Shown piece by piece: positions 22,666 through 49,013 of a stretch of DNA of 64,000 nt. Under the pieces are notes generated by a model that made no database searches, was not told the DNA's origin, and was given only the letters and a program-made list of their open reading frames with translations. Numbering within the stretch: position 1 is the first letter of the stretch; every line of letters begins with the position of its first letter. Both the position numbers and the translations under genes were made by a program. Source of the DNA: Deltaproteobacteria bacterium (GTDB lineage: Bacteria > Myxococcota_A > UBA796 > SXON01); NCBI GenBank assembly GCA_947484175.1, contig CANKOI010000006.1, positions 6,641-70,640 on the forward strand, in the 5' to 3' direction.

Positions 22666-22691
<26 letters not shown>

Positions 22692-23565
22692 TCGCAGCGA
22701 GGCCCAGCGCTGCCGCTCCGGCGCCGCCGCCACCCGACTCGCAGCTGCAGCCGGGGCTCGCGTTTACCGACTCGCCGTCGGCACAGACGCTGTCGTTGCC
22801 GCTGCAGTCCTGATCCACGGCATCGCCGCACTCGTCGGTGGCGTGGGGGCCGATCGCTGCATCGGAGTCGGCACAGTCCGAACCGCCGACCTCGGCCGCT
22901 GCGGCGCCGTCGCCGTCGAGGTCGACAAGATCGCTGCCGTCGCAGTCCTGGTCTACCCCGTCGTAGGCCACCTCCCCCGCCCCAGGGAGCACCATCGGGT
23001 CCTCGTCGTCGCAGTCCTCGCCCCCCAAGGCCAACGCCACGACGCCGTCACCGTCGGAGTCCGCCGGCTCGGAGTCGACCTCCATGGCGTAGTAGTAGTC
23101 CTCGGCGCGGTCGGTGGGGAAGCTCTCCAAAAAGCTGTCCGCCTGCACCTCCAACGTGCCCGCCACGGCCCCGAACCAAGGGTCTTCGCTGCCGCGCTCC
23201 GAGTAGGCGTAGCCCCAGTCTCCCTCGAGGTAGGCGCCGATCGCATAGTTCCCTCCGGCCTCGATGAGCCAAGACACCGCACCGCTGTCGGCGAAGCCCT
23301 CCCCCTCCTCGGGCAAGCCGCTGCCATCGGCACTGCCCACCAGCTCGTACACCTCGCCGCGCTCGCGGTACAAGGCCAGCATCACGACCCCGGTGTCGTC
23401 CGGGTCGCGCGCTGCCTCGACGTAGAACCGCAGGCCGGTGACCACCGCTGTTTCTTTTGCTTCGACGAGGATCACCTTGATCATGTCGCCGCTGTCGTTG
23501 TTCGATTCGTACCCGCCGAGTTCGTCCGTGAGCGCTACGGCCTGAGCAACAAGGAGAAGGAGCAT
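22666..23565 (-). CDS. secreted protein with Cys/Asp-rich putative metal-binding motifs and a MYXO-CTERM-like tail
   Basis: Contains GGEDCDDEDP...YDGVDQDCDGSD and ends GCSCESGGGGAGAAALGLAAISARRRRQ. Confidence 0.7.
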
Positions 23566-33758: not shown

Positions 33759-34703
33759 ATGGCAATGCTCCAAGAGTGGAACGTACGGATGGGGGACTCC
33801 GAGGCCGTGGTCTCGGCGGACAACTGGCTGGCAGCTCTGGCGCTCGCCCTCCCGCTACTGGGCCTCGATTTGGGAGCGATGGGGAGGCTGGTCTGCGCCA
33901 CCGACAGCGATGGCAGCGCCACCGCGCGCGACCCACGCTCGGGCGCCGAGCTACACATTTCTCCAGTCGGCCGGGGGCAGCCGCCGGCGTTTGCGATGCC
34001 CGAGTCCAGCTTCGCCTCCATCAACGCGCCCCAGCTCCGCACGCGCGCGCCGGAGGAGCCGCCGCGCCCGGCTGCACCCGCGCCTACGCCCCCACCCGCG
34101 CCTACGCCCCCACCTGCGCCCACCCCCGCGCCCAGCCGCGCAGTGGAGCCACCACCACCCGCGCCCGAGGTGCAGCCTCTCCCGGAAGTCCCGCCTGAGC
34201 CGCAGCAGGCGCTCGGGGATCGCCTTGAGGACCTGTTCATGCGCCTCGGCGACATCAACGACGCCTCCAACGTGAGCGAGGCGTGTGCCACCGCCTTGTC
34301 GATCGCCTCCGAACTTGTGCCTTGCGATGCGGGCGCAGTACTCCTCCGCACCCAGGCGGGCGACGCGCTGCGTTTCATGGCCTCCCACGGTCCCGCCGGA
34401 AAGGCCGTGCTCGACACGACGATCCCCCTCGACCGAGGAATTGCTGGCTTCGTCTCACAGCTCGGCTTGAGCATCACCATCCGGGACGCGCGGACGGATC
34501 AGCGGCACTATGGCCGGGTGGACAAAAGCACCGGCTACACCACCCGCTCGATCCTCGCGGCGGCCGTGCGTACCGACAGCGGGGGCTGCTACGGGGTGCT
34601 CGAACTGATCAACCCGCCCGCGCGCTTCACCGCCGACGACCTCGAGATCGTCTCCCGGGTGGCCGTGACACTCGCCAACTACCTCCAGGGCATGCACGCC
34701 TAG
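33759..34703 (+). CDS. GAF-domain protein with Pro-rich linker
   Basis: C-terminal GAF-like domain (VLLRTQAGDALRFMASHG...GIAGFV...SILAAAV...GVLELIN). The ATG at 33759 is the first possible start beyond the divergent HD gene. Confidence 0.6.
   Translation: MAMLQEWNVRMGDSEAVVSADNWLAALALALPLLGLDLGAMGRLVCATDSDGSATARDPRSGAELHISPVGRGQPPAFAMPESSFASINAPQLRTRAPEEPPRPAAPAPTPPPAPTPPPAPTPAPSRAVEPPPPAPEVQPLPEVPPEPQQALGDRLEDLFMRLGDINDASNVSEACATALSIASELVPCDAGAVLLRTQAGDALRFMASHGPAGKAVLDTTIPLDRGIAGFVSQLGLSITIRDARTDQRHYGRVDKSTGYTTRSILAAAVRTDSGGCYGVLELINPPARFTADDLEIVSRVAVTLANYLQGMHA
34076..34111 (+). repeat. 2 x 18-bp perfect tandem repeat (ACCCGCGCCTACGCCCCC) in the Pro-rich linker
   Basis: Counted directly. 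It encodes PAPTPP repeats, with a degenerate third copy. Confidence 0.8.
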
Positions 34704-35023
34704 ACGGGCATGTTCCAGATGGACTGGTAGGCCTCGACGAACTTGTCGCGAACGCTGCCCATCGCGCGCAGCGTGATGTTTGCCTCTTCCAGCGCAACCA
34801 TCATGCCCGCGTAGTCTTGGTCCTGCCCTGACATCACTTCGTACACCTTCTGGTCCGACGCGGCCTGGTACTGCTCGGTGCGGTCGACCGCGCTGGCCAT
34901 CGCCTTGCCGAAATCCACCCCACCGGCCGACTCCGCCTGAGCGGCACCGCTGCCCGGGCGGGTGACATTCGGTGATTCCAAACCGGTGAGCAGCCCCGGG
35001 TTCGCTCCAATTGCCGTAACCAT
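34700..35023 (-). CDS. fliE: flagellar hook-basal body complex protein FliE
   Basis: 107 aa with the C-terminal LRAMGSVRDKFVEAYQSIWNMPV signature. It follows flgB-flgC. Confidence 0.85.
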   Translation of the reverse strand: MVTAIGANPGLLTGLESPNVTRPGSGAAQAESAGGVDFGKAMASAVDRTEQYQAASDQKVYEVMSGQDQDYAGMMVALEEANITLRAMGSVRDKFVEAYQSIWNMPV

Positions 35024-35026
35024 TTG

Positions 35027-35452
35027 TTACCTCCCGATCCCGATCGCAGCCATCGCCATGTCGCGCGTGGCCTCGATCACGTTGGCATTGGCCTCGTAGG
35101 CGCGCTGGGCCGTCATCAGGTCGACCATCTCCCCCATCACGTTGATGTCGGGAAGCAGCACAAATCCGCGCGCGTCGGCGTCGGGATGAGTGGGATCGTA
35201 ATGCTGGATGGGTGGCCGGTCGTCGCGGTTGATTCCGCTCACCACCACGCGCTGAGTGGCCGCCTCCAGAGAGTTGCCGAAGGGGTCGAGCGCTTCGGAC
35301 TCGAACACGGGCACCTGCCGCCGATAGGGGCCGCCCTCCGGCGTGCGGGTCGTGCGCGCATTCGCCATATTGGAGGCGATCGTGGTGAGCCTTGCCCGCT
35401 CCGCCGCCAGCCCGCTGGAGGCCACGGCAAAGGCATCGAAGAAGTCGGCCAT
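35027..35452 (-). CDS. flgC: flagellar basal-body rod protein FlgC
   Basis: Contains SGLAAERARLTTIASNMANARTTRT and MGEMVDLMTAQRAYEANANVI. Confidence 0.95.
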   Translation of the reverse strand: MADFFDAFAVASSGLAAERARLTTIASNMANARTTRTPEGGPYRRQVPVFESEALDPFGNSLEAATQRVVVSGINRDDRPPIQHYDPTHPDADARGFVLLPDINVMGEMVDLMTAQRAYEANANVIEATRDMAMAAIGIGR

Positions 35453-35847
35453 CAGCTCCTCCCATCACTGGCGGCGAACTTGAGCATCGCGAGCCGCCTG
35501 GAGGCGCCTCCGACCGCCGCCTGGTAGAAGAGCTTGTTCTCCTCCACCCGCGCCGCTTCCCGCTCGAGGTCCACCGAATTTCCGTCGAGTGACCACGCCG
35601 GTGCTTCGAGCTCCGTGAGTCGCTCCTCGAGGAGCGAGTTCAGGTCTACCGACTCGCCGGCCACGGCCTTTGCCATCGCCTCGCCGAGCAGCTCCGAGAA
35701 GGGCAACTCCTTCGCGAGGTAGCCAGGAGTGTTCACATTCGCCAAGTTGCCGTTGGTGAGCAACTGGCGCGCTTGGGTGATCTCCATCGCGTGGCTCAGA
35801 CCACTCTGGAGACCATCGAAGAGCTGCAGTCCGGTCGTAGAGACCAT
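35452..35847 (-). CDS. flgB: flagellar basal-body rod protein FlgB
   Basis: Contains LLTNGNLANVNTPGY and LDGNSVDLEREAARVEENKLFYQAA. TGATG junction with flgC. Confidence 0.9.
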   Translation of the reverse strand: MVSTTGLQLFDGLQSGLSHAMEITQARQLLTNGNLANVNTPGYLAKELPFSELLGEAMAKAVAGESVDLNSLLEERLTELEAPAWSLDGNSVDLEREAARVEENKLFYQAAVGGASRRLAMLKFAASDGRS

Positions 35848-35868
35848 GGGGCTTTCCCTCCGCCCTCC

Positions 35869-35895
35869 CCATCGGTCAGCAGGGGAAAATGTTTA
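35869..35895 (-). promoter_or_regulatory. sigma-28-type promoter TAAA-N15-ACCGATGG upstream of flgB
   Basis: The minus strand reads GGTGCTAAACATTTTCCCCTGCTGACCGATGGGGAGGGCGGAGGGAAAGCCCCATG. Confidence 0.55.
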
Positions 35896-35913
35896 GCACC
35901 AACAAGAAACTCT

Positions 35914-38064
35914 TCAGGGCGTCCGGCGCTGCTTGAGTTCGGCCCCGAGCACTCGCTGCGCCTCTTCTTCGCGGGCCAACGCACCCCATATGCTAGGGTC
36001 TGCCCCCGTTGCCTGCGCGAAAAGCGGGTTCACCGTTCGGCCGGCGTCACTCTCGAGCCTTGACGCCCTGGAGCCGGCCCAAGCGCGCACGTCGCCGTCG
36101 GAGGCGAGTCCCGCGACGGCCACCGCCGCATCGGCGGCCGCCGCCGTACGACCGGTAGCGAGGAGGCAGCGCAGCAGCGTTTCCTGAACGACAATGCCGT
36201 CGCTTCCGGCTGGAGGCGACTCCGCGGCGACCTCCAGTTCGGGCAGCGCCTCCTCGCACCGACCCTCCCGCGCGTCCAAGATGGCCAGACGGAGCCGGGC
36301 CTGCACGGCGAAGCCGGGCGAACGCTCGAGGGACTTGAAGCGGGCACGAGCCCGCTCGAGGTCGCCGCGACCTTCGGCGGCAAGCGCCTCCAGCCACGCC
36401 AGGTGGCCGTCCAACTCAGGGGCGTTGTGCCGCCGAAGCCAGTCGACGGCGTCCAGAGCATCCCTGTACCCACGAGTTCGTACGTACAGCCCGGCCATCG
36501 CCATCACGGTCGGTCGGCTGTCGATCCCTCGGCGCCGTTCGAGCTCCGCCGCGAACCGCCACGTGGCCTGTGCCTGCTCCGACAGGCCGGCTTCCGCGTA
36601 CGCGCGCGCAATTGGATGGAGCGGCGACGAATCGGCGAGGTGGAGAACGAGCGTCTCCGAACCGACGGCCCGGTGGAGCGCCAGGGCGTCCATGCGGCGC
36701 CCCTCCGTGAGCAGGCGTTCGCTGCGGCGCGTCCACGCCGCCGTGAGGGACGCGCCGACAGGACCCGCAGCGAGCCGGGGAGCCCGGAACACCAACGAGG
36801 CCCAGGCCTCCACAGCCTCTCTCTCCAACCCCAGCACGGCGCTCACCTGCGCCAACAGGTTCAGGCTCTCCTCTCCAGCATCGCCCGGGAGCTTGGAAGC
36901 ACGCTGAAGATCGGGAACGAGGCTCCCCCAGCGAGAGGTCGGCAGCGCCAAGACCGCGAGGTGGCGCGTGCGGGTGCGGAGCAGCGGGCCGAAGGCCGCG
37001 GGGAGATCGTGCTCGCTCACCTCTGCGTAGCCCCTGCGGGCGGCATCGATATCGCCAGCACGAAGCTGGCTGTCGGCCAACAGCAGGCGGCCGACGGCGT
37101 CATCGGGTGACGCCGATTGCGTAGGCGGGAGGGCAAGAAGGGCCACCGCCTCGCTCTCGCAGCCGGCCCGGCTGAGCGCGACCCCGACCAAGCGCCTGTG
37201 CTCTCCCGAAAGGTCCGTGGAGGCGACGGCGCGTGCCATGCCGCGCAGGTCTTTCCCTTCGCTCTGCATCTCAGCCCACAGCATCGCAACCAGCACCATC
37301 TCCGGCGCGCCCCCGGCCGCCTCGGCGTCGCGGGCACTGCGCCGGGCGCCCTCCCAGTCCTTCACGTTCATGCGAGCCCGAGCCGCCTGGAACCGCGCCG
37401 CCACGGCGTGCGCCCCCCCGACCGCGCCGGAGCGGTCGAAGTAGTAGGCCGCCTCGCGCTCGTGACCGAGCGCCCGCAAGAGGGCGGCAAGGCGGTACAT
37501 GAGCCGTTCGTGTTCGCCCGCGGTTTTGGCCTGCGCGAGCAGCCGGCGAGTGTCCCAAACCTCGGTCCACTGGACCACCGAAGGCTCGCCGGCAGACCAC
37601 TCCGGCAACGCCGGAGGCTCCGCCATCGCGTCGAGGCTCCAGCGGCTATCGGCGCCCGAGAGCGGCGCGGGGTTCGGGGGTGAAGAAACACAGACGCTGC
37701 CGTCGAATTTCCCTATTAGGGCCTCCGCGCCCGAGCGCGCCCCAGCGACTAGAGCGAGCGGGGCGACGCGTGGCACCACCACTAGAGCCGCCCCGCCTTC
37801 GGTGGCCCGCACCACCACTGCGGTTCCCGGATCGGTCAGCGTGAGCGCGAGTACCTGCCCTCCCCCCCTCTGCCAGACTTGCACGCGTGCAATCCCGGTG
37901 CCCACGGTCCAACCGACCTGAGGCCCGAGGTCGATCTGGTTCTCGTGCACGAGTACGTCAACGTGGCCCGGGTTGGCAGAGGTGAGCACCTCCACCCTGC
38001 CTCCGGGGGAGAGTTGCAGCTCCAAAGGGAGCGCGAGAGCGATGCTGACAAAAAGCAGGGTCAT
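35914..38064 (-). CDS. secreted 716-aa protein: AMIN-like beta N-domain plus long TPR-like helical repeat region
   Basis: Signal-like MTLLFVSIALALP. The N-domain reads VEVLTSANPGHVDVLVHENQIDLG...VLALTLTDPGTAVVVRATEGGAALVVV, and the remainder is Ala/Leu/Arg-rich helical repeats. Its ATG overlaps the OMP stop (TGATG). Confidence 0.6.
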   Translation of the reverse strand: MTLLFVSIALALPLELQLSPGGRVEVLTSANPGHVDVLVHENQIDLGPQVGWTVGTGIARVQVWQRGGGQVLALTLTDPGTAVVVRATEGGAALVVVPRVAPLALVAGARSGAEALIGKFDGSVCVSSPPNPAPLSGADSRWSLDAMAEPPALPEWSAGEPSVVQWTEVWDTRRLLAQAKTAGEHERLMYRLAALLRALGHEREAAYYFDRSGAVGGAHAVAARFQAARARMNVKDWEGARRSARDAEAAGGAPEMVLVAMLWAEMQSEGKDLRGMARAVASTDLSGEHRRLVGVALSRAGCESEAVALLALPPTQSASPDDAVGRLLLADSQLRAGDIDAARRGYAEVSEHDLPAAFGPLLRTRTRHLAVLALPTSRWGSLVPDLQRASKLPGDAGEESLNLLAQVSAVLGLEREAVEAWASLVFRAPRLAAGPVGASLTAAWTRRSERLLTEGRRMDALALHRAVGSETLVLHLADSSPLHPIARAYAEAGLSEQAQATWRFAAELERRRGIDSRPTVMAMAGLYVRTRGYRDALDAVDWLRRHNAPELDGHLAWLEALAAEGRGDLERARARFKSLERSPGFAVQARLRLAILDAREGRCEEALPELEVAAESPPAGSDGIVVQETLLRCLLATGRTAAAADAAVAVAGLASDGDVRAWAGSRASRLESDAGRTVNPLFAQATGADPSIWGALAREEEAQRVLGAELKQRRTP

Positions 38065-38714
38065 CAGAACCGCACCAGCGCCCCACCCGCCACCCGCAAG
38101 GCCGACCAGTCGAACCCGCAGGGCTCTCCGTTACACACGGTGCCCGACACGCTGTCGGCCACGTCGCTCGCTCGGCCCCCGAACGACGCAAAAAGGTCGA
38201 GTCCCTGCGGCCCCTGCGCGCCGGGCGACAACGAGGGACGCAGGTAGGGCGTGTGCCATCGCACCGAAGCTTCCACCAGCGCACCCCAGCGAACGCCCCA
38301 GTCGAGCCTGCCGGGCACCGCCACCTCCGAGCCAGCCTCCTGCCAAACGACCGCGCTCGGCCCCACTCCGCCCAAGAGTGACACCGCCCCCCAATCAAGG
38401 CGACCCGACACCAGCAAGCTCGTAGGCGCGTACCAGATCCACGAGCGAGTGTCGTCGGAGCGAGCGCCCTCCAGCCGTCGGTAGCCGAGCTCCAGCGTGG
38501 TCTCGATCGGCAGCCGCCAGCTCAGCGTGGCGATCCCCTCCAAGGCCAAGCTTCCGCCCAGCTTGGGGTAAGCGGCGACCAGCCCTCCCTGCGTAATGGC
38601 CTCTCCAGAGGCGGAAGCGCCCAGCGCAAAGCCCCCTAAGAGCAGGGATGGATCGAACGGCGCGGGCGCAGCACCCGCCAACGAAACGACCATGGCGATC
38701 GGGAAGGACACCAC
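38064..38714 (-). CDS. predicted outer-membrane beta-barrel protein
   Basis: Alternating amphipathic strands (LALEGIATLSWRL, SWIWYAPTSLLVSGRLDW, WGALVEASVRWH) and a C-terminal GGALVRF ending in Phe. The signal peptide is weak and uncharged. Confidence 0.5.
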   Translation of the reverse strand: MVSFPIAMVVSLAGAAPAPFDPSLLLGGFALGASASGEAITQGGLVAAYPKLGGSLALEGIATLSWRLPIETTLELGYRRLEGARSDDTRSWIWYAPTSLLVSGRLDWGAVSLLGGVGPSAVVWQEAGSEVAVPGRLDWGVRWGALVEASVRWHTPYLRPSLSPGAQGPQGLDLFASFGGRASDVADSVSGTVCNGEPCGFDWSALRVAGGALVRF

Positions 38715-38720
38715 GACTCC

Positions 38721-39029
38721 TCAGGCACGGCGCCGCAAGCGGACGCCAGGGTCGGCATGGAGGCAGGCTTGCCCCCTCACCGCCCTGCGCCGGCCGGGGA
38801 TCGCGGCGATTTCTCCGTTCGCTCGCACGCGGGCGAGCCCGATCCCATCGGTGAGCCGGAGGACGACCGCCTGGCCACGCTCCACGTCGGCCGGCGCCGC
38901 GCCCTCCAAGAGGCGGACCAGCTCTTCGATTTGAAGATCGAGCTCCGAAGCACGAACGGGCGCTCCCCGTAGCCAGCCGGCCCGGACGGTCTCCAAATGC
39001 AGCAGGAGTCGATCGAGAGCGGGCGTCAC
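38721..39029 (-). CDS. 102-aa hypothetical protein coupled to fliS
   Basis: Its GTG start overlaps the fliS stop (GTGA at 39026-39029). Third positions are G/C-rich and the N-terminal half is helical. No family recognised; its position matches that of fliT in other taxa. Confidence 0.5.
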   Translation of the reverse strand: MTPALDRLLLHLETVRAGWLRGAPVRASELDLQIEELVRLLEGAAPADVERGQAVVLRLTDGIGLARVRANGEIAAIPGRRRAVRGQACLHADPGVRLRRRA

Positions 39030-39424
39030 CCTGTCCCCTCAACGTCGTCATTGGCGTGTTCGGCAGCGTGCCGGAAGGCCTCGAGGAGGTTCTGGCTCAC
39101 CCTGAGGAGACCGTTCACCCCCTCCACGTCATGGTCACGGCTCAGGTCCCCCAGCCGCCTCACCACCCAGCGGTAGGTCAACGAGAGGTTTTGCACCAGC
39201 TCAGGAGCCACTTCCGGGTCGAGGGCGCCGTGCAGCTCGAGGTAGATGGTGCGCACGGTGGCGAAGTCTTCGGCCACCCGAATGCGGTGGCCCCGCTCGC
39301 CACTCTGCATGGCCGCGCGAGCGCTCTCAAGCCTCGTGATCACCATCTCAAAAAGCATCACCACCACCTGTTCATTGGGGGCGGAGAACAAACGATTCTC
39401 ACGGTAGCTGTCGAGTCCACGCAT
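39026..39424 (-). CDS. fliS: flagellin-specific chaperone FliS
   Basis: 132 aa with a four-helix pattern: VVVMLFEMVITRLESARAAM...VRTIYLELHGALD...YRWVVRRL. It lies directly after fliD. Confidence 0.85.
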   Translation of the reverse strand: MRGLDSYRENRLFSAPNEQVVVMLFEMVITRLESARAAMQSGERGHRIRVAEDFATVRTIYLELHGALDPEVAPELVQNLSLTYRWVVRRLGDLSRDHDVEGVNGLLRVSQNLLEAFRHAAEHANDDVEGTG

Positions 39425-39432
39425 GATTACCC

Positions 39433-40830
39433 CTATGAGTCGCTGGAGGTGGATGTGCTGGGAAGCAGGGCTTCAAGCTGAGCTTGAGAGGCTTGGAGCT
39501 TGCCGAGCGCAATCTCCATCGCGATGAACTGCCTCCGAAGGCGGGCCTCGTAGGCGTCCATCCGTGCGTCGAATGCATCGATGTCGTCGTTGAGGAGCTC
39601 GATCTCGTCGTCGAGCGCCCCCATGCGGTTGGTGAGCATGCCACCGGTCTGCACGATCGCGCCGCTGGCGTCGACCGAGACCTCATCCTCGCTTGCGTAG
39701 AAGTCGATGAGCGCCTTCATGTCGTCGCCGAACGCCGCTGCATCCGTGGCGAACAGCGCCGCCACGTCGTCGCTGGCCTCGTCGAAGGCCTTCTCCATGG
39801 TGTCGTCGTCCACCTCAAGCGTACCGTCCTGCGCCGTCTTGATGCCGATCTCGGAGAGCGAATTGTACAGCGTGCCGCTGCTGTAGGCGGTTCCCACCAC
39901 AGTCTGCATGGCCTGCATAAGCGCCACCACCGTCCCCTCGCCCACGAACTCACCCTTGATCCCGGCATCGGCGTCGTAGGCCCGATGGGTGTTGATGAAG
40001 GTGCGGACGGTGTTGAAAGCCTCCACGAAGGTCTTGACGTTCGCCATGGCCGTGTCGACGTCGCCTGCTACCGTCACCGTCAACGCGGAGCTGGTGACGT
40101 CCTCCAGGGTGAACGTCACGCCGTGCACAACGCCGCCAACCTCGTTGTCGGCACTGGTGACGGCCACTCCGTTGACGGTGAGCTCAGCGTCCAGCGCGGT
40201 ACTCGTGGCCGTGAACGTCGGCACCGTGCCGGCGCCCGTGAGCCCGGAGGTGTCGAGCGAAAGAGAGTTCGTCGCACCCGTATCTTCACCGGCAATGACC
40301 AGCCGGTAGGGGGTTGCGGCATCCCCGGTGTCCATGATGTACGCGGTGACACCGTCAACGCTCTCGTTGATGAGGTCGGCCAAATCGGACAGCGAAGAGT
40401 TGGTGCTGTCGATTGTGAGTGTCGTCGTGACACCCGCGTAGGTGACGCCCAAGGTTCCCTCGGCGATCGTGCCCGTGGCAGTATCGCTAGCGAACCCGTC
40501 TGACACGCTGGTGGCGGACGCCGCGAGCTGCGAAACAGTGATGGAGTATCGGCCGGCCACCGCATCGCCGTCTACTTCGACGGTAACGCTGCCTTCGTCG
40601 GAGCTGCTCCCCGTGGAGGCGCGCAGCTCCGCGGAGGTATCGAGAGCCTCCAGTGCCGTGAGCATGTCGCTCATATGCGTGCGCAACGTTTCATACGCAT
40701 CGCGCCGCTCTTCCACATCCGCGACCTTGGCCTCCATGACGGCCTGAGGCGCTCTGGCGGCCGCGACCAAGCTGGTCACCATGCTGTCAGTATCGATGCC
40801 GCTGACGATGCCGCCTATGCTGATTGCCAT
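39433..40830 (-). CDS. fliD: flagellar filament cap protein FliD
   Basis: N-terminus MAISIGGIVSGIDTDSMVTSLVAAARAP; C-terminus RMDAYEARLRRQFIAMEIALGKLQASQ. Confidence 0.9.
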   Translation of the reverse strand: MAISIGGIVSGIDTDSMVTSLVAAARAPQAVMEAKVADVEERRDAYETLRTHMSDMLTALEALDTSAELRASTGSSSDEGSVTVEVDGDAVAGRYSITVSQLAASATSVSDGFASDTATGTIAEGTLGVTYAGVTTTLTIDSTNSSLSDLADLINESVDGVTAYIMDTGDAATPYRLVIAGEDTGATNSLSLDTSGLTGAGTVPTFTATSTALDAELTVNGVAVTSADNEVGGVVHGVTFTLEDVTSSALTVTVAGDVDTAMANVKTFVEAFNTVRTFINTHRAYDADAGIKGEFVGEGTVVALMQAMQTVVGTAYSSGTLYNSLSEIGIKTAQDGTLEVDDDTMEKAFDEASDDVAALFATDAAAFGDDMKALIDFYASEDEVSVDASGAIVQTGGMLTNRMGALDDEIELLNDDIDAFDARMDAYEARLRRQFIAMEIALGKLQASQAQLEALLPSTSTSSDS

Positions 40831-40857
40831 GCACGCCTCCCGAATGCGCGTGATCTC

Positions 40858-40884
40858 ACATCGGCCGCCCGGCGCCCGACTTTA
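40858..40884 (-). promoter_or_regulatory. sigma-28-type promoter TAAA-N15-GCCGATGT upstream of fliD
   Basis: The minus strand reads TCTAAAGTCGGGCGCCGGGCGGCCGATGTGAG...GGGAGGCGTGCATG. This is the best match to the TAAA-N15-GCCGATAA consensus in the window. Confidence 0.7.
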
Positions 40885-40908
40885 GACGAATCCTTCACAC
40901 GCGACCTT

Positions 40909-40948
40909 GAAAAATGGCGAGGACCGGGCACTACCGCCCCGGTCCTCG
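40909..40948 (-). terminator. intrinsic terminator after flagellin 1
   Basis: The 11-bp stem is CGAGGACCGGG/CCCGGTCCTCG with a 9-nt loop, followed by CCATTTTTC. Confidence 0.7.
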
Positions 40949-40958
40949 GCCCAAGGGC

Positions 40959-41792
40959 TCAGCTCTGCAGGAGCTGCACGACCGACTGGCCGAGATTCTT
41001 CGCCTGTGCGAGCACCGCCACTCCGGCCTGTTGCATGATTTGATACTTGGCGAGGTCCGCCGTTTCCTCCCCGAAGTCAGCATCCCGGATCTGGCTCTCA
41101 GCGGCCTTGGTGTTCTCTGCGAACACCTCAATGTTGTTCAGCGCGCTGCCCAACCGGTTCTCTGCGGCACCCAACTTTGAGCGATAGGAATTGACGGTGT
41201 CGAGCGCGGCATCCACGAAGGCGAGCGCCGCGGTCGCGCCGGCCGCCGTGCTGAGGTCAATGGTAACCGAATCGACAGCAAGCGTAGTGGAGCGAAGGTC
41301 ACCGAGATCGATGCCGACCTGATCGTTCACCGTGGCACCAATACCCACCTGCACGTTCATCAAGGTGTCCGAGCCGTCCGACAATTTCATGCCATTAAAC
41401 TCAGTGACATTTGCGATGCGGTCCACTTCGGCGGAAATCGCGAGGAACTCGTCCTGGATGTACGCACGTTCGGCGGTGCCGAGCGTCTCCGAAGCGCTTT
41501 GAACCGCCAGCTCTCGGATTCGGCCGATGATGGAGGCGACCTCCGTACTCGCGCTCTCCGCGACCGTCACGACACTGATGCCGTCTCCGATGTTGCGCTG
41601 CGCAACTCGTGAGGAGTCGTAGGAAACCTTCAGACTCTCTGCCACACCGAGGCCCGCCGCGTCGTCTGCGGCGCGCACGATGCGGAGTCCCGAAGAAATC
41701 CGCTGAAAGGACTTGGAAAGACTCCGGCCCGTTTGGCCGAGTTTGGTGATCGCCGAATTGGCGGCCGTGTTGGTGTTGACCCTGATTGCCAT
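40959..41792 (-). CDS. fliC: flagellin (277 aa, D0/D1 only)
   Basis: Starts MAIRVNTNTAANSA...ISSGLRIVRAADDAAGL and ends QIMQQAGVAVLAQAKNLGQSVVQLLQS. Confidence 0.95.
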   Translation of the reverse strand: MAIRVNTNTAANSAITKLGQTGRSLSKSFQRISSGLRIVRAADDAAGLGVAESLKVSYDSSRVAQRNIGDGISVVTVAESASTEVASIIGRIRELAVQSASETLGTAERAYIQDEFLAISAEVDRIANVTEFNGMKLSDGSDTLMNVQVGIGATVNDQVGIDLGDLRSTTLAVDSVTIDLSTAAGATAALAFVDAALDTVNSYRSKLGAAENRLGSALNNIEVFAENTKAAESQIRDADFGEETADLAKYQIMQQAGVAVLAQAKNLGQSVVQLLQS

Positions 41793-41826
41793 TCCTTACT
41801 CCTTCCGGGTGTTGCCCGACGGACAC

Positions 41827-41853
41827 GGTTCGGTAAGGAGTGGTGCGGCTTGA
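41827..41853 (-). promoter_or_regulatory. weaker sigma-28-type promoter TCAA-N15-ACCGAACC upstream of flagellin 1
   Basis: The minus strand reads GGCTCAAGCCGCACCACTCCTTACCGAACCGTG...GGAAGGAGTAAGGAATG. Confidence 0.4.
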
Positions 41854-41873
41854 GCCAACTGTGGCGGCTACGC

Positions 41874-41919
41874 AAAAAAAAGCGCAACACGGCACCCGGC
41901 CGTGAGGCCGGATGCCGTG
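41874..41919 (-). terminator. intrinsic terminator between the two flagellin genes
   Basis: The 14-bp stem CACGGCAUCCGGCC/GGCCGGGUGCCGUG has one G-U pair that forms only in the minus-strand RNA. The loop is UCAC, followed by UUGCGCUUUUUUUU. Confidence 0.85.
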
Positions 41920-41930
41920 CGCCCGGTCGA

Positions 41931-42761
41931 CTACTGCAGAAGTTGCAGTGCGCCCTGGTTCATGCTCTTCGCCTGCGCGAGAATCGCGGTACCAGCCTGC
42001 TGCAGGATCTGGTTTTTGCTCATCTCGGCGGTTTCGTAGCCGAAGTCGGCATCCCGAATGGCGCTTTCCGCCGCGAGGGTGTTCTCCGTGAAGCTCTCAA
42101 GGTTGTTGAGCGCTCCCAAGAGGCGGTTCTCCGCCGCACCGTAGTCCGAACGGTACGCACTGACGAGGTCAATGGCGATATCGATCAGGCCAATCGCGGT
42201 ACTCGCGAATGCAGCGGTGCTCAAGTCGACCGCGCCGGTGTCGACGCCCAAAGCCACCGACCCGAGGTCACCGAGGCTGATGGCCACCTGATCGTTGGCG
42301 GTGGCGTGAATGCCCACCTGTACACTGATCGAGGTGATCGTACCTTCGGTAAGCAACAATCCGTTGAATTCGGTCACTTCCGCGATGCGGTCGATTTCTC
42401 CGGAGAGCGCCACGAACTCGTCCTGTACGTAGGCGCGTTCGGCGGTGCCGAGCGTTTCCGAGGCGCTCTGCACAGCGAGTTCACGCATACGGCCAAGCAT
42501 GCTCGCGACTTCCGCCGAGGCGCCTTCTGCCACGGTGACCATCGAAATGCCGTCGCCGACATTCCTCTGAGCAACCTTGGCGGAGGCAGCAGCCACCCGG
42601 AGGTTCTCCGCGACGCCCAAGCCGGCGGCGTCATCGGCCGCCTTCGAGATGCGGAGTCCGCTGGAGATTCTTGCGAAGGAGCCGGAAAGCGCGCGAGCCG
42701 ACTTGTTAAGTTCGGACATCGCTCGATTTGCGGCTGTATTGGTGTTAACGGTCAGGGCCAT
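41931..42761 (-). CDS. fliC: flagellin (276 aa, D0/D1 only)
   Basis: Starts MALTVNTNTAANRA...ISSGLRISKAADDAAGL and ends QILQQAGTAILAQAKSMNQGALQLLQ. Confidence 0.95.
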   Translation of the reverse strand: MALTVNTNTAANRAMSELNKSARALSGSFARISSGLRISKAADDAAGLGVAENLRVAAASAKVAQRNVGDGISMVTVAEGASAEVASMLGRMRELAVQSASETLGTAERAYVQDEFVALSGEIDRIAEVTEFNGLLLTEGTITSISVQVGIHATANDQVAISLGDLGSVALGVDTGAVDLSTAAFASTAIGLIDIAIDLVSAYRSDYGAAENRLLGALNNLESFTENTLAAESAIRDADFGYETAEMSKNQILQQAGTAILAQAKSMNQGALQLLQ

Positions 42762-42817
42762 GGTGTGTTTCTTCCTTTTGTGCGTAATGGGCGAGCGAAA
42801 TTGCTCACCCGGAAGGA

Positions 42818-42845
42818 CGATCGGCGCCCCCCCTCGACGACATTA
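42818..42845 (-). promoter_or_regulatory. sigma-28-type promoter TAAT-N16-GCCGATCG upstream of flagellin 2
   Basis: The minus strand reads GCCTAATGTCGTCGAGGGGGGGCGCCGATCGTCC, inside the only AT-rich patch of this intergenic region. Confidence 0.5.
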
Positions 42846-42926
42846 GGCTTTTTTTACCACCGGCCAAAAAATCGTAAAGCCCCTGCGGCCGGCCTGTGGG
42901 CCAGCGGCGACCAGGCGCTCGTTGTT

Positions 42927-43799
42927 TCAGATCAGATCAAACAGGCTTTCCCCTTTCCCCGATGCCGCCACCTGAAGGGCGCTCGAGTAGGCGTTCCGAA
43001 GCTCCGACAGCTTCATGTAGGTGGCAGCCGGGTCGGCCTGCACCATCTCATCCATCCGTGTGCCCAGCTCGCTGCGGAGCGAAGCGGCGAGCGCGGTCGC
43101 GTCGTCCGCGACGTTGGCGGAAGCGCCTACCTCCGCGCGCGAGAACATCACCTGCCCGAGCGAGGTGTCGATGTCCGCGAGGGAGGCCTCAATGGCAGCC
43201 GTGTTGTCGGCGTTCAGCGCGGTTGCGAGCCCATCGAGCACCGCCAAAACGTCCGCGCCCCCTTGGAATACCGACGAGCCATCGAGGGAGCTCGTCACCC
43301 AGGTGTTGGCGCCCACGCGCGTGCGAGGCTCGTCGGTGCTCCCCATGTAGGTGCCCGCGGCGTCGAAGGGCTCGGTGTCCCACGCATTGCCGGAGAAGAG
43401 GTAGCGCCCGGCGAGGTTGCTGTTGGCGGACTGAAGCACCGTGGCCCGCAGCGCCTCCACCTCCAACGCAACATACGTGCGCTGTTCGGCGCTCATGAGG
43501 TCGCCCGAGGACTGCACCACTAGCTCCCGCGCGCGAGAGAGAGCATCGTGAACGTGGCCGAGCTCGCTGTCCATCTGATTGAGCCGAGCCAGCGACTGGC
43601 CACCGTTCTGCTCGTAGACGTCTTGATCCATCGTGGCGGCGTGCAGGCGGTCGATCTGCGAGAGCAGCGCAGGAGCGTCGGAAGGTCGGTTCACGGCGAG
43701 ACCGGTGATGGCCTGCTCCTCGACCTGACGCGTGCGCGTAGCATTCGCCGCGAGGTTTTGACGAACCAACTGCCACAGGCCTGCTTGAGTGACACGCAT
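42927..43799 (-). CDS. flgL: flagellar hook-filament junction protein FlgL
   Basis: Contains MRVTQAGL...GLAVNRPSDAP and a flagellin-like N-terminus. It follows flgK. Confidence 0.85.
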   Translation of the reverse strand: MRVTQAGLWQLVRQNLAANATRTRQVEEQAITGLAVNRPSDAPALLSQIDRLHAATMDQDVYEQNGGQSLARLNQMDSELGHVHDALSRARELVVQSSGDLMSAEQRTYVALEVEALRATVLQSANSNLAGRYLFSGNAWDTEPFDAAGTYMGSTDEPRTRVGANTWVTSSLDGSSVFQGGADVLAVLDGLATALNADNTAAIEASLADIDTSLGQVMFSRAEVGASANVADDATALAASLRSELGTRMDEMVQADPAATYMKLSELRNAYSSALQVAASGKGESLFDLI

Positions 43800-43801
43800 G
43801 C

Positions 43802-45187
43802 TCAGCCTCCCACCTGGAGAAGGGTACGAAGCAGCTCGTCGGCCGCGCTGAGCACCTTGGCCGAGGCCCGGTAGGCCGCCTGGTACTCAAGGAGATGCGT
43901 GGCCTCCTCGTCGGTGTTGACGCCAGAAATTCCCTCGCGGAGGATCTGGAGGTCGGAGAGCAGCGCCGACTGCGCGGTGCTGTCGCTGCCGGCCGCCGCC
44001 ACGGCGGTGCCGACGTCGCTGACGATCGCACTCGCCGCCGCGCGAGCCGTGCCCACCGGGAAGAGGGTGGTGTCATCCTCGAGCGCGAGGAGGGCTTCGA
44101 GGTTGCCGCTATCGCCCGGGAGCGCGGTGGCTGCCGAGGCGAAGGCGAGAAGGGATGAGTCGGCAGCAATGGTGGCGTTCACGGCCAAGCCCAGCGCCGA
44201 GCCCGGGGCGGTGCCGCCCACATCGAACAACGGGAGCCCCGCCACGCCAGCGCTGTCGAAGCCCGCTGCGTGCTGGGTGTTGAAGGCGTTGGCCACCGTG
44301 AAGGCGAAGGTGTCGAGATCGGTGGCCCAGCCGTCGATCCGCGCCCGCGCCGCCACCAGACCGCCCACGGAGCCGCCTACCTCTGAGGTGATGTCGAACG
44401 TGCCATCGTCCATGCTCACCTGCACCGCGGGGTCGCCCGCGGCGTCGGTGCCGAGCGAGAGCGGCCGGAAATCCCCGCGCCCCACCACGCCATGACCCGC
44501 CACGAACACCACAGCCTGCCCGTTCGCCTTCAGCTGAACTGTGGCTCCCACTTGTTCGGCGAGCTGAGTGAGGAGGTAGTCGCGACGGTCGAGCAGGTCG
44601 CCTGGACCCTCCTCGGCCCCCAAGTTGCCGATCGCGGCGTTGAGCTGCGCGACCTCCGCGAGCGTAGCGTTGACGGTGTCGAGCTCGGCCGCCAGCTCGT
44701 CCTCGGCGCCGGTCAGCCCGTCGGCGAGCCCCCCTGCGATGCGCGAAACGGTGCTGGCGAAGGTGGTCATCGCATACACGGCGGCGCCGCGCTGCGCGGG
44801 GTCGCTGGGGTCGACGGTCGCACTAGCCAACGCGTCGAACACCAAGTCCAGAGACTCCCCGAGCCCGGTGGTGTTCGTGGCGTCGAACAGACCCTCGACA
44901 CCGCTGAGCTGCCTCGAAAGGGTACTCGCCTCACTGGAGGTGCCCGCGGCCTCTACGAGCCGAACGCCGAGCAAGCGGTCGATGGCTCGTGTCACGCCGG
45001 CCGCTTTGGCGCCCTGCCCAACGAACAGCGCGCCCTGCTGCACCGGCGGCAACTGTTCCACCCGCAACGTGCGGCGGCTGTACCCTGGCGTCTGCGCCCC
45101 GGTGACGTTCTGAGCCGTGACGTCGATGCCTGCCGAAGCGACGGCCAAGCCGCGCGCCCCGACGCTCAACGTACCGAAGAGGCTCAA
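43802..45187 (-). CDS. flgK: flagellar hook-associated protein FlgK
   Basis: Starts MSLFGTLSVGARGLAVASAGIDVTAQNVTGAQTPGYSRR; the C-terminus reads LLEYQAAYRASAKVLSAADELL. Confidence 0.9.
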   Translation of the reverse strand: MSLFGTLSVGARGLAVASAGIDVTAQNVTGAQTPGYSRRTLRVEQLPPVQQGALFVGQGAKAAGVTRAIDRLLGVRLVEAAGTSSEASTLSRQLSGVEGLFDATNTTGLGESLDLVFDALASATVDPSDPAQRGAAVYAMTTFASTVSRIAGGLADGLTGAEDELAAELDTVNATLAEVAQLNAAIGNLGAEEGPGDLLDRRDYLLTQLAEQVGATVQLKANGQAVVFVAGHGVVGRGDFRPLSLGTDAAGDPAVQVSMDDGTFDITSEVGGSVGGLVAARARIDGWATDLDTFAFTVANAFNTQHAAGFDSAGVAGLPLFDVGGTAPGSALGLAVNATIAADSSLLAFASAATALPGDSGNLEALLALEDDTTLFPVGTARAAASAIVSDVGTAVAAAGSDSTAQSALLSDLQILREGISGVNTDEEATHLLEYQAAYRASAKVLSAADELLRTLLQVGG

Positions 45188-45516
45188 GAGGCTCTCCGCA
45201 GCACCGCGTGGCGGCTGTAGGTCGAAGGCCCTTGGTCGGGCGCCAACGAGGCGATCGCCTCCAACACACTGTCCCCGCAGGCGCGAATGCGAACGTCGAA
45301 GGACCGAATCATCGCGGCTACCCGCGCGATCTCCTCGCGACGCCCAGACTCCAGCTTCAAGAGCACTTCAACGTCGAGCGCCTCCTGAAGGCTACGCCGC
45401 GTTTCCGTGGCGGCCACGAGTGAAGCCGCGTTGGCGGTGCGGGCTGCCTGGAGCTGATGCTCCACTGCCGCGAGCAACCGCCTTAGGGCGAGCTCGGCGT
45501 CGTCCGCCGTGTCCAT
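45184..45516 (-). CDS. flgN: FlgN-like export chaperone
   Basis: 110 aa, helical, positioned between flgM and flgK. Its stop overlaps the flgK ATG. The call rests mainly on position and size. Confidence 0.55.
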   Translation of the reverse strand: MDTADDAELALRRLLAAVEHQLQAARTANAASLVAATETRRSLQEALDVEVLLKLESGRREEIARVAAMIRSFDVRIRACGDSVLEAIASLAPDQGPSTYSRHAVLRRAS

Positions 45517-45517
45517 C

Positions 45518-45823
45518 TCAGAGGTCGGCCATGAGCGCGCCTACGGCGGCGTTCATGTCGGTTTCGTTGCCGAGCGTGCCGGCAGCGATGTCTGCACGGG
45601 CGGCGGCGACGCGGTCGGCCCGCACCTCGCCGAAGGGGTGGTTGCGGGTAGACTCTTGCAGACGAGAGAGAAAGCCACTCTTCTCCACGCTTGCCGCCGG
45701 CGTCGCCGAGGGCGTGGCCGAGGGGGTGTTGGTGGAGCCGCCGATTTCGGCCGGAGCTGCACTACGGATACGACCGTAAGTGATGGGGCTCGGCGTTGCG
45801 ACTGAGGGTGCAGAAACTTTCAC
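45518..45823 (-). CDS. flgM: anti-sigma-28 factor FlgM
   Basis: The C-terminus VRADRVAAARADIAAGTLGNETDMNAAVGALMADL follows a disordered Ser/Thr/Pro-rich N-terminal region. I prefer the GTG at 45823, which is preceded by GAAGGAGG. The track start at 45856 lies inside the predicted promoter. Confidence 0.75.
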   Translation of the reverse strand: MKVSAPSVATPSPITYGRIRSAAPAEIGGSTNTPSATPSATPAASVEKSGFLSRLQESTRNHPFGEVRADRVAAARADIAAGTLGNETDMNAAVGALMADL

Positions 45824-45841
45824 GGATGCCTCCTTCGTTCC

Positions 45842-45868
45842 GATTCGGACAGCCACTCCCGAACTTTA
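45842..45868 (-). promoter_or_regulatory. sigma-28-type promoter TAAA-N15-TCCGAATC upstream of flgM
   Basis: The minus strand reads GGCCTAAAGTTCGGGAGTGGCTGTCCGAATCGGAACGAAGGAGGCATCCGTG. Confidence 0.55.
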
Positions 45869-45883
45869 GGCCCTTTCGCAGAT

Positions 45884-46660
45884 TCAACGATCTTTTTCGC
45901 CAATCGGTCGGAGCCCGCCCCAACTAGCGGGGTCCAACGCCGCTCCATTACGACGCACTTCAAAGTGAAGATGGGGCCCGGTGCTTCGGCCCGTGCTGCC
46001 CACCGTGGCGATCGTCTGGCCCGCCTCGACCACGTCGCCGGCCCGGACCCCGAGGTCTCGGCAATGGGCGTACCGTGTCTCGGCGCCGTCGGGATGGGTG
46101 ACGATCACCACGTTCCCGTAGCTGCCTCGGGCGCCCGAAAATCGCACCACGCCCGCGGCCGCGGCCCGGATGGGCGTGCCGGCAGGAGCGCCGTAGTCCA
46201 CCCCCCGATGAGCCTTCGCTTCGCCGGTGAACGGGTCCTTCCGGGCCCCGAACGCACTGGTCACCCGCACGGCCTCTCCCACGGCCTCTCCCACCGCATG
46301 GCCCGCGGCCGATCCCGCCGCCCTAGCCTTCGCCACGGGGGCCGACGCCGAAGCCTGGGCCGTCTCGCCCCCAGCCGCGAGCCGGCGAGCCTGCAGCGAC
46401 CCGATGAGCTGCGCCTGCAAACCGAATCCACCGGTCTCCGCCACGCGCTCGCCCACTTCCTGGTCGAAGAGCTCGGCGAAGGTGCCCATCGCCCCCTCCG
46501 ACCACGGCCCCTCCTTCACCGTTTCGCGCATCTGCTTCGAGAGCAGCGCCACCATCCATGCTTCAAACTTCCTCGCAGCCGCCTCGTCGGCATCGGCCAC
46601 GTTCCCGTCAGGACCCGTGAGCGCCGCCAGCGAAGAAAGGGAGGAGACGGGGTTCACCAC
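45884..46660 (-). CDS. flgJ: FlgJ-like protein: rod-binding domain fused to an M23 peptidase domain
   Basis: The N-terminal FEAWMVALLSKQMRET...FAELFDQEVGERVAETGGFGLQ is rod-binding-like. The C-terminal HRGVDYGAPAGTPIRAAAAGVV...STGPHLHFEV is an M23 domain. Confidence 0.8.
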   Translation of the reverse strand: MVNPVSSLSSLAALTGPDGNVADADEAAARKFEAWMVALLSKQMRETVKEGPWSEGAMGTFAELFDQEVGERVAETGGFGLQAQLIGSLQARRLAAGGETAQASASAPVAKARAAGSAAGHAVGEAVGEAVRVTSAFGARKDPFTGEAKAHRGVDYGAPAGTPIRAAAAGVVRFSGARGSYGNVVIVTHPDGAETRYAHCRDLGVRAGDVVEAGQTIATVGSTGRSTGPHLHFEVRRNGAALDPASWGGLRPIGEKDR

Positions 46661-46664
46661 GCCG

Positions 46665-46691
46665 CCTTCGGTCAGGCACCGGAAAACTTTA
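46665..46691 (-). promoter_or_regulatory. sigma-28-type promoter TAAAGTTT-N11-ACCGAAGG upstream of flgJ
   Basis: The minus strand reads GCGCCTAAAGTTTTCCGGTGCCTGACCGAAGGCGGCGTG. The -35 box matches the 8-nt enteric consensus, and the -10 box ends 4 nt before the annotated GTG. Confidence 0.5.
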
Positions 46692-48307: not shown

Positions 48308-48407
48308 GGGCTACCTCTGCGGCATACTCTATAGACGGCAGCCCGCCGCTCGTCTACCGCCCCCTTGCAGCGAGTGGGCCGATGGTGACGTAGAACACGG
48401 CTTGGAC

Positions 48408-48938
48408 TCAGTTCCCCCACCCCGGCTTCTCCACAATCTCACTCACGATGTCGGCGTCGAGCAGCACCTCACGGGTGAAGCGCTCGACGGCCTTGTACTC
48501 CGTCTTGCTGCCCGGGATGAAGACCAGCACGCTCCCGTCTTCGTGCTTCTCGAACTTGTAGATGAGCATCTCCGAGCGCGGCGCCGGCCGGCCGACGAGC
48601 TTTTTCTTGTCGAAGGGGGCGCCCCAGGCCATGAGCACCATGTCTTTGACCCACCCCTCTTGCACGGCCCCGTCGACGATGAGCTGGCGCACGTTCGCAG
48701 GGTACTGGTAGAAGACGTCGTAGAGGTTGATCGGGGGCACTCGCTCGAGCTTGATGGACTTGAGGTAGGCGGAGCGCTCCTCCTCCGTCTTCAAGAGCAG
48801 GAACGCCTTCTCCACCTCTTCGCCCATGAACGGCTTCAGGGCGTAGTAGTGACTGAATTCGTCGTCGCCCAGAAACTTGATCCGGCTCTTCCATGAACAG
48901 CCGGCGAGGACGAGGGCGCACACAAGCAGGAGACGCAT
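48408..48938 (-). CDS. lipoprotein, unknown function
   Basis: The ATG at 48938 follows GGAG. MRLLLVCALVLAGC lipobox. The composition is Lys/Glu/Tyr/Phe-rich, unlike its neighbours. Confidence 0.6.
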   Translation of the reverse strand: MRLLLVCALVLAGCSWKSRIKFLGDDEFSHYYALKPFMGEEVEKAFLLLKTEEERSAYLKSIKLERVPPINLYDVFYQYPANVRQLIVDGAVQEGWVKDMVLMAWGAPFDKKKLVGRPAPRSEMLIYKFEKHEDGSVLVFIPGSKTEYKAVERFTREVLLDADIVSEIVEKPGWGN

Positions 48939-49013
48939 GGACACTCCGAGAACGAGCCGCTGCTAACCGGACTTCGCGAGACCGACACGGCCGCCGCCCA
49001 ACCCACCGCCCGA

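Follow-up and report, generated by a model that had tools for sequence, protein, structure and literature searches.

Flagella are known in Myxococcota from the cultured myxobacterium Anaeromyxobacter dehalogenans 2CP-C, in which a flagellar cluster of 55.7 kb was described; the authors argued for an ancient and not a recent origin, and strain K was seen swimming (Thomas et al., 2008; PMC2330069). For uncultured members, "flagellar assembly" was named among the features of the Zodletone Myxococcota metagenome-assembled genomes (MAGs) (Murphy et al., 2021; bioRxiv 10.1101/2021.07.06.451402). Here we analyzed a 64 kb stretch of DNA (the window, G000:C6:6641-70640, where G000 is our label for the MAG studied) that carries a block of flagellar genes at positions 34700–46660. 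A preliminary inspection of its letters (the sequence-only reading) had proposed an intact flagellar block in a Myxococcota genome and had regarded flagella as unexpected for this phylum. The block is real and intact, with minor corrections concerning the flgB frame, flgM, flgN, and a FlgJ fusion, while the premise of unexpectedness is outdated in view of the Anaeromyxobacter cluster of 2008, the Zodletone MAGs, and the spread of flagellin over the phylum described below. We consider it highly probable that the block belongs to an intact flagellar system, complete and vertically inherited, of an uncultured freshwater-lake lineage of Myxococcota. The system is not anomalous, because many other lineages of the phylum are flagellated as well.

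A. dehalogenans 2CP-C resembles G000 in being a myxobacterium with a near-complete set that includes motAB and fliC, and fliJ and flgN were likewise unrecognized in it (PMC2330069). Its flagellar genes are gathered in a single cluster of 55.7 kb in which chemotaxis genes (two cheA and four mcp) are embedded, and no flgJ was found there (PMC2330069), whereas those of G000 are distributed over six contigs, include a FlgJ-like fusion of a rod-binding domain with an M23 peptidase, and are accompanied by no CheW or MCP domain. The FlhA proteins of the phylum's other classes are only 43–48% identical to that of G000. The Zodletone MAGs differ in coming from an anoxic spring, in having reported chemotaxis genes, and in that flagella were treated in one sentence without analysis; the present lineage is from lake water. 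With Escherichia coli and Salmonella, G000 shares the same structural parts, with recognizable orthologues for 30 of 34 structural, export, motor, and sigma queries, as well as a sigma-28/FlgM-type promoter logic (TAAA-N15-GCCGATAA-like motif). Unlike these bacteria, it has no match to FlhDC, FliT, or FlhE and no Che system, an M23 domain replaces the GH73 muramidase of FlgJ, the flagellins are short (276–277 amino acids, aa), a sigma-28-type motif precedes flgBC-fliE, and three extra genes lie between flgB and fliS.

Flagellar genes and promoters

G000 is a 4.37 Mb MAG of 167 contigs with a GC content of 68.9%, a completeness of 94.7%, and a contamination of 2.0% (CheckM-type figures). The block was annotated by Pfam and NCBIfam profile searches with curated cut-offs, and the GC content at third codon positions (GC3) was used to choose among overlapping open reading frames (ORFs). 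The genes are as follows.

34700..35023, minus strand: fliE, MS ring-rod adaptor, 107 aa (Pfam PF02049 FliE, E 3.2e-22)
35027..35452, minus strand: flgC, proximal rod, 141 aa (Pfam Flg_bbr_C 8e-13 and Flg_bb_rod; E. coli FlgC tblastn 1.3e-24)
35452..35847, minus strand: flgB, proximal rod, 131 aa (TIGR01396, 61.4 bits, cut-off 59.05; E. coli FlgB tblastn 4e-9; GC3 0.83)
35914..38064, minus strand: TPR-containing protein with an N-terminal hydrophobic segment, 716 aa (weak TPR matches only in Pfam and NCBIfam; GC3 0.81)
38064..38714, minus strand: 216-aa protein (no Pfam or NCBIfam match; GC3 0.82 favours coding)
38721..39029, minus strand: 102-aa protein directly after fliS, the E. coli fliT position (position alone; no family match; GC3 0.78)
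39026..39424, minus strand: fliS, flagellin chaperone, 132 aa (Pfam FliS 8.6e-16)
39433..40830, minus strand: fliD, filament cap, 465 aa (Pfam FliD_N 4.7e-22, FliD_C 3.1e-45)
40959..41792, minus strand: flagellin 1, short form with D0/D1 only, 277 aa (Pfam Flagellin_N 1.3e-35, Flagellin_C 4.3e-24)
41931..42761, minus strand: flagellin 2, 276 aa (Pfam; 67% identical to flagellin 1 by BLASTP)
42927..43799, minus strand: flgL, hook-filament junction, 290 aa (NCBIfam TIGR02550, 163.3 bits, cut-off 127.2)
43802..45187, minus strand: flgK, hook-filament junction, 461 aa (Pfam FlgK_D1 9e-44 and Flg_bbr_C)
45184..45516, minus strand: flgN candidate, 110-aa helical protein, candidate FlgK/FlgL chaperone (gene position alone)
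45518..45856, minus strand: flgM candidate, anti-sigma-28 factor, 112 aa (Pfam FlgM 1.1e-3 and TIGR03824 2.3e-3, both below cut-offs; position)
45884..46660, minus strand: FlgJ-like protein (Pfam Rod-binding 2e-7, N-terminal, and Peptidase_M23 3.8e-36; TIGR02541 FlgJ 4e-9, N-terminal part only)

The block is a part of the rod genes together with the late genes (hook-junction and filament) of an ordinary Gram-negative flagellum. The window encodes all of the junction, cap, filament, and chaperone proteins (FlgK, FlgL, FliD, flagellin, and FliS), each matching Pfam or NCBIfam strongly. The stop codon of flgB shares one nucleotide (nt) with the start of flgC. The earlier description of all block genes as full length stands, by profile matches, for fliE, flgC, flgB, fliS, fliD, the two flagellins, flgL, and flgK; of the remaining three, flgN is recognizable by position only, flgM matches below the cut-offs, and the FlgJ-like protein carries an M23 peptidase. 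The gene at the flgN position gave no Pfam or NCBIfam match at E <= 1. The FlgJ-like protein carries an M23 metallopeptidase, and no muramidase, fused to its rod-binding domain, as seen from the Pfam domain pair, and a literature search on FlgJ-M23 fusions found no usable report. FlgJ is reportedly plastic in its domains, and variants with a hydrolase other than a muramidase are said to have been described by Nambu and colleagues in 2006 (Genes Genet Syst). The present protein is like these variants in combining an N-terminal rod-binding domain with a peptidoglycan hydrolase of another type, the likeness here lying in the Pfam domain pair alone.

Two overlapping ORFs were rejected: 35465-35872, formerly taken as flgB, is in the wrong frame (GC3 0.45, no family match), and 38395-39051 is an out-of-frame artefact (GC3 0.56, Arg/Pro-rich). 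The region of the 716-, 216-, and 102-aa genes (35914-39029), between flgB and fliS, aligns as DNA in the congener G297 and not in several others. Neither Pfam nor NCBIfam gave a match for the genes of 102 and 216 aa, even at E <= 1. On the other side of the block, 42 nt separate the flgJ-like gene from the end of an upstream gene for a B12-binding radical SAM enzyme (534 aa), which is preceded on the same strand by genes for a 178-aa putative lipoprotein and a 203-aa sulfotransferase. These genes (within 46703-49625, minus strand) may form a module for flagellin or envelope modification.

For the rest of the apparatus, 48 E. coli K-12 proteins of the flagellar and chemotaxis systems served as tblastn queries against the whole MAG, and the ORFs adjacent to the matches were then scanned with Pfam and NCBIfam. 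The remaining flagellar genes were found on five other contigs, six contigs in all.

Contig C37: flhA, fliA, flgF, flgG, flgA, flgH
Contig C49: flgD, a "Flagellar_put" gene, flgE, fliL, fliM, fliN, fliO, fliP, fliQ, fliR, flhB
Contig C36: fliF, fliG, fliH, fliI, a weakly FlbB/MgtE_N-like gene, a weakly FliK-like gene
Contig C72: flgI
Contig C7: motA (MotA_N and MotA_ExbB) and motB (MotB_plug and OmpA), flagellar type

All of the flagellar genes on these contigs are open frames of normal length; that of flhA, for example, encodes 714 aa and scored 791 bits. The E values of the E. coli queries were 2e-98 for FliI, 6e-57 for FlgG, 1e-57 for FlgI, 2e-50 for FliP, 2e-41 for FlgE, 6e-37 for FlhB, 5e-34 for FliG, 6e-19 for FliQ, 1.6e-14 for FliN, and 1.5e-12 for FliR. 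Pfam and NCBIfam confirmed FlgD, FliL, FliM, FliO (Pfam 7.7e-8), FliH (Pfam 1.4e-10), FlgH, FlgA, FlgF, FlgI, MotA, MotB, FliF (TIGR00206, 140 bits, above the cut-off), and FliA/WhiG, and FliG was slightly below its cut-off (2e-62). The search by tblastn alone missed flgN, flgM, flgA, fliE, fliH, fliJ, fliK, fliL, fliM, fliO, fliT, and flhE, several of which were recovered by Pfam. The genome contains an export gate (FlhA, FlhB, FliP, FliQ, and FliR, plus FliO), the MS ring, C ring, and ATPase components (FliF, FliG, FliM, FliN, FliH, and FliI), the rod, L/P-ring, and hook components (FliE, FlgB, FlgC, FlgF, FlgG, FlgH, FlgI, FlgA, FlgD, FlgE, and, by a weak match, FliK), and a flagellar-type MotA/MotB stator (C7). 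The sequence-only reading had depended on the remaining core genes being present elsewhere in the genome and undegraded; they are neither missing nor degraded, since tblastn, Pfam, and NCBIfam located them all as open frames of normal length.

Some features of these loci were unusual. FliO (G000:C49:22562-23704, plus strand) is unusually long at 380 aa, with the FliO domain at residues 61-162 followed by a long extension. Two extra genes lie between fliI and the FliK-like gene (C36:13370-13963 and C36:14420-15442, both minus strand), one encoding an SPFH/Band-7 protein and the other a protein of 197 aa that weakly matches MgtE_N and FlbB, the collar protein of spirochaetes (NF047368, 1e-8). 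A FliJ candidate on C36 was rejected, as neither Pfam nor NCBIfam matched it even at E <= 1. The flgI gene (G000:C72:18685-24094 region) is apart from the other flagellar genes, between two MYXO-CTERM-tailed proteins, and is also flanked by a multihaem MtrC/MtrF-like cytochrome (475 aa).

The plausible promoters proposed earlier were borne out by a recurrent motif. The pattern TAAA-N15-RCCGA, which resembles the sigma-28 consensus, was counted on both strands of the window, with the expectation taken from shuffles: three copies were found against 0.11 expected, and flgB, fliD, and the flgJ-like gene each have one of the three just upstream.

35872..35895, minus strand: sigma-28-type motif TAAA-N15-ACCGA, upstream of flgB
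40861..40884, minus strand: sigma-28-type motif TAAAGTCG-N11-GCCGATGT, upstream of fliD
46668..46691, minus strand: sigma-28-type motif TAAAGTTT-N11-ACCGA, upstream of the flgJ-like gene
41887..41920, minus strand: intrinsic terminator between the flagellin genes, a 15-pair stem followed by a T run

Weaker versions of the motif precede both flagellin genes. The gene adjacent to flhA on C37 encodes FliA/WhiG (TIGR02479, 191.4 bits, cut-off 189.6), so named by its profile match, and the elements of a sigma-28/FlgM regulon (FliA/WhiG, FlgM with a weak match, and the promoter motifs) are present in the genome. Two more FliA-like sigma factor genes (G000:C4:18641-19315 and G000:C1:61708-62358) are closer to E. 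coli FliA (tblastn 1e-42 and 1e-31, respectively) than the flhA-linked one (5e-25).

Phylum membership and integrity of the genome

The assignment to Myxococcota started from two window proteins that had been said to terminate in GC[SG]C followed by a hydrophobic helix and then RRRR, as in the MYXO-CTERM sorting signal. The translations agree with this description.

22666..23565, minus strand: MYXO-CTERM-type protein, secreted, Cys/Asp-rich, 299 aa, ending SPGCSCESGGGGAGAAALGLAAISARRRRQ (...SPGCSCESGGGG...RRRRQ); found again by the genome regular-expression scan
57977..59167, plus strand: MYXO-CTERM-type protein, 396 aa, ending DGCGCNGAAERGASVVGVAALALAAMRRRR (...DGCGCNG...RRRR)

The tail of the second protein can be aligned with the C-terminal end of the myxosortase-dependent phytase NF045638. 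Among 151 genomes sampled from the same GTDB phylum, 141 (93%) matched the MYXO-CTERM model TIGR03901, 137 of them above the curated cut-off and many with dozens of copies, while the 14 control genomes had no match. At least 29 matches were counted in G000 itself and 22–45 in each of four close relatives. In twelve named genomes of other phyla (Oligoflexales, Binatia, Verrucomicrobiota, Acidobacteriota, Alphaproteobacteria, Gemmataceae, Bacillota, and Thermoleophilia), only 0–4 marginal, partial matches each were found. A regular-expression scan of G000 detected 27 strict CxC-helix-RR tails. A CPBP protease (C15:35575-36471) matched the myxosortase core model NF040914 Mrt_core (112.2 bits, cut-off 100), and its best specific models were MrtP, MrtX, and MrtC; the MrtP score of 161 bits is below the cut-off of 250 for that model. 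Both marks of the phylum, abundant MYXO-CTERM tails and a myxosortase-family protease, are accordingly found in the genome, and we assign it to Myxococcota because its phylum is rich in MYXO-CTERM, its own tails number at least 27, and it encodes this protease. The placement proposed by the sequence-only reading is upheld by the contrast between the same-phylum genomes and the controls.

A lineage outside Myxococcota that merely uses MYXO-CTERM-like signals is very improbable. Related Cys-containing C-terminal signals do exist in other phyla (the JDVT-CTERM and Synerg-CTERM models), and the NCBI placement of "Deltaproteobacteria bacterium" under Myxococcia is nomenclatural only. Such a lineage would have to be reconciled with TIGR03901 tails that are widespread in the same-phylum sample, which spans more than 70 families with genomes of up to 11 Mb, and not in the controls or the twelve named genomes, and with a protease whose best matches are to the myxosortase core, MrtP, MrtX, and MrtC and not to MrtJ or MrtS.

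The flagellar and MYXO-CTERM genes could in principle derive from different organisms joined in a chimeric bin or contig, given that G000 is a short-read MAG of 167 contigs and that NCBI titles of its relatives are unreliable, some being labelled Klebsiella. This explanation is effectively refuted. The flagellar block and both MYXO-CTERM genes are on a single contig, 11 kb apart, and the segment 22650-42640 (20 kb), which runs from the first MYXO-CTERM gene as far as the second flagellin, is collinear with single contigs of at least five congeneric species, assembled independently (G297:C129, G302:C69, G407:C18, G403:C12, and G401:C35; the G297 stretch includes the MYXO-CTERM gene). In the regular-expression scan, MYXO-CTERM tails were found on the flagellar contigs C6, C7, and C72. 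The contig GC content is uniform (0.63–0.72). Because of the collinearity in independent assemblies, the shared contigs, and the uniform GC content, chimerism is ruled out in practice, and the low contamination figure (2.0%) agrees.

Descent of the flagellar system

The FlhA sequence of G000 is 77–91% identical to those of its closest relatives, 52–59% within the same order, 47–51% within the same class, 43–48% in the rest of the phylum, and 38–44% in other phyla. The closest relatives are MAGs obtained from Lakes Erken and Biwa and from lakes in Switzerland, together with one titled "M_DeepCast_65m". Three public MAG records with FlhA proteins 77–81% identical to that of G000 (L007, L009, and L010; CAMBIK01, CAMAWH01, and CAYHRZ01) are clearly mislabelled as "Klebsiella pneumoniae" or "uncultured Klebsiella sp.". 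In a FlhA tree of 65 rows (IQ-TREE, LG+C20 PMSF, SH-aLRT support), G000 groups with its close relatives (100). Their clade falls within that of all same-order sequences (100), and the sister of this order clade is formed by the same-class sequences (99). FlgK identity declines in a similar way (34–43% in the order, 30–35% in the class, and 26–37% in the phylum), and the genomes that have FlgK (12 of 19 in the order and 5 of 8 in the class) are precisely those that have FlhA. These data indicate that the flagellar system has been inherited vertically since at least the common ancestor of the GTDB class. The support extends to the class level only, because at phylum depth the Myxococcota sequences fall into three well-supported clades that share a polytomy with Verrucomicrobiota and with a clade labelled Bdellovibrionota. 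To that level, the question raised earlier of vertical descent or transfer is answered by a tree and an identity gradient that follow taxonomy.

A horizontal transfer of the genes into the lineage from a flagellated phylum would be compatible with that polytomy, with a FlhA identity beyond close relatives of approximately 44%, similar to that with Oligoflexales, Verrucomicrobiota, and Acidobacteriota, and with the lower GC content of the flagellin region (0.635). Flagellins, as highly expressed genes, commonly show a lower GC3, which counts against reading it as a sign of transfer. The genes are also dispersed over six contigs and form no single island. Since the FlhA tree and the FlhA and FlgK identities follow kinship, decreasing stepwise with GTDB rank through nested clades with supports of 99–100, a recent horizontal acquisition appears very unlikely.

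Vertical inheritance is accompanied by a patchy distribution. Flagellin_N (PF00669) was detected above the Pfam cut-off in 171 of 401 sampled species of the phylum, in many families and in several one-contig genomes. Within the window's genus and family, flagellin was present in 3 of 3 and 6 of 8 genomes, respectively. The same 7 same-order genomes are without flagellin, FlhA, and FlgK alike, and the presence of flagellar genes varies even inside genera (g2, g5, g20, and g22); from these two observations we infer repeated loss of the complete set.

Motility, steering, and implications

From the established roles of the gene families, the machine would work as follows. The export gate (FlhA, FlhB, FliO, FliP, FliQ, and FliR, with FliH and FliI), housed in the FliF/FliG/FliM/FliN rings, would export the rod proteins FliE, FlgB, FlgC, FlgF, and FlgG. 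The N-terminal domain of the FlgJ-like protein probably caps the rod, while its M23 domain would cleave peptidoglycan cross-links locally. FlgA, FlgI, and FlgH would give the P and L rings, and FlgD, FlgE, and the FliK-like ruler the hook; FlgK, FlgL, FliD, and the two short FliS-chaperoned flagellins would form the junction, cap, and filament, with MotA and MotB powering rotation. The FliA/WhiG sigma factor, probably restrained by FlgM, would read the TAAA-N15-RCCGA promoters after export of FlgM.

Steering is the part in which the genome departs most from this scheme. Of the che genes for which a search had been suggested, a CheA-like kinase and a CheY-like receiver were found, while CheW, MCP, CheR, and CheZ were not. 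The only CheA-like kinase has a DAHL-PAS-Hpt-HATPase architecture without a CheW-like domain (G000:C23:3553-5820, minus strand), and the receiver, a stand-alone protein 45% identical to E. coli CheY, adjoins an HDOD-domain protein (G000:C53:5785-6180, minus strand). E. coli CheR and CheZ queries gave no tblastn match in the MAG, and a CheA with a CheW-like domain together with CheW and MCPs was not found. The motor is probably not controlled by a classical chemotaxis array, because the genome is without a CheW or MCP domain; the DAHL-Hpt-HATPase kinase and the CheY-like receiver could provide an array-independent input. MCP matches were present in only 2 of 11 other congeners searched, and flagellin in all 3 congeners tested.

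Several points weigh against a complete, swimming, vertically inherited system in a Myxococcota genome. CheW (PF01584) and MCPsignal (PF00015) had zero matches in G000, which is unusual for a swimmer and may reflect a contig missing from the 94.7%-complete MAG. FliJ and FlgN were not recognized in the MAG by Pfam, NCBIfam, or tblastn; FliM matches in the C-terminal FliMN_C only, its N-terminal part being weak; and both the FliK-like protein (Flg_hook 4.9e-3) and FlgM are weak. To these are added the phylum-level polytomy of FlhA and the derivation of the phylum name from MYXO-CTERM, the myxosortase-family protease, and record titles. Flagellum assembly, rotation, and swimming are predictions from gene content.

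The last point bears on an explanation in which the genes are intact and there is no motility organelle, the apparatus being a relic or repurposed for export, as was suggested for the type III flagellar genes that Lysobacter has without being flagellated (PMC7688988). The missing chemotaxis array and the patchy presence among close relatives, suggestive of frequent loss, would suit this explanation, which we nevertheless regard as quite unlikely. The Lysobacter case keeps only export genes, whereas in G000 every gene for the filament, cap, junction, hook, L/P rings, and stator is an open frame of normal length, and conserved sigma-28-type promoters and terminators are present. In addition, genomes that lack one tested flagellar gene lack all of those tested, as in the 7 same-order genomes, and this all-or-none presence of flagellin, FlhA, and FlgK points to selection on the whole machine. 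The reading of a complete flagellar system in a Myxococcota lineage stands on gene presence and intactness, the promoter motif, the MYXO-CTERM linkage, the conserved gene order, and a phylogeny that follows taxonomy, all of which are established.

Taken by itself, the window is of little consequence, as it holds a normal flagellar regulon of one more Myxococcota lineage, with precedent since 2008. Flagella in Myxococcota appear to be a known phenomenon whose extent is under-reported. A 2026 preprint surveying motility genes across Myxococcota MAGs made no mention of flagella, and in the other recent Myxococcota literature examined they occurred only in reference titles. The only proposal of a flagellated myxobacterial ancestor that we found dates from 2008 and is based on Anaeromyxobacter alone. 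Flagellin, FlhA, and FlgK occur together in approximately 40% of the species sampled, in many families of the phylum, and they follow taxonomy, with loss of the whole set in scattered genera. A wider proposal is offered tentatively, with the balance tipping slightly toward doubt: flagella would be ancestral and still widespread in Myxococcota (approximately 40% of species), with many recent genus-level losses that include the gliding and fruiting lineages, and the present genus would be a planktonic swimmer without an MCP/CheW array. As an otherwise complete swimmer without CheW and MCP, it would offer a small natural case for flagellar steering without a chemotaxis array. Because flagellar genes are found in approximately 40% of the sampled species, the textbook account of flagella-free motility describes the cultured fruiting clades and not the whole phylum, and motility surveys restricted to A-motility and S-motility genes will miss swimming in Myxococcota.

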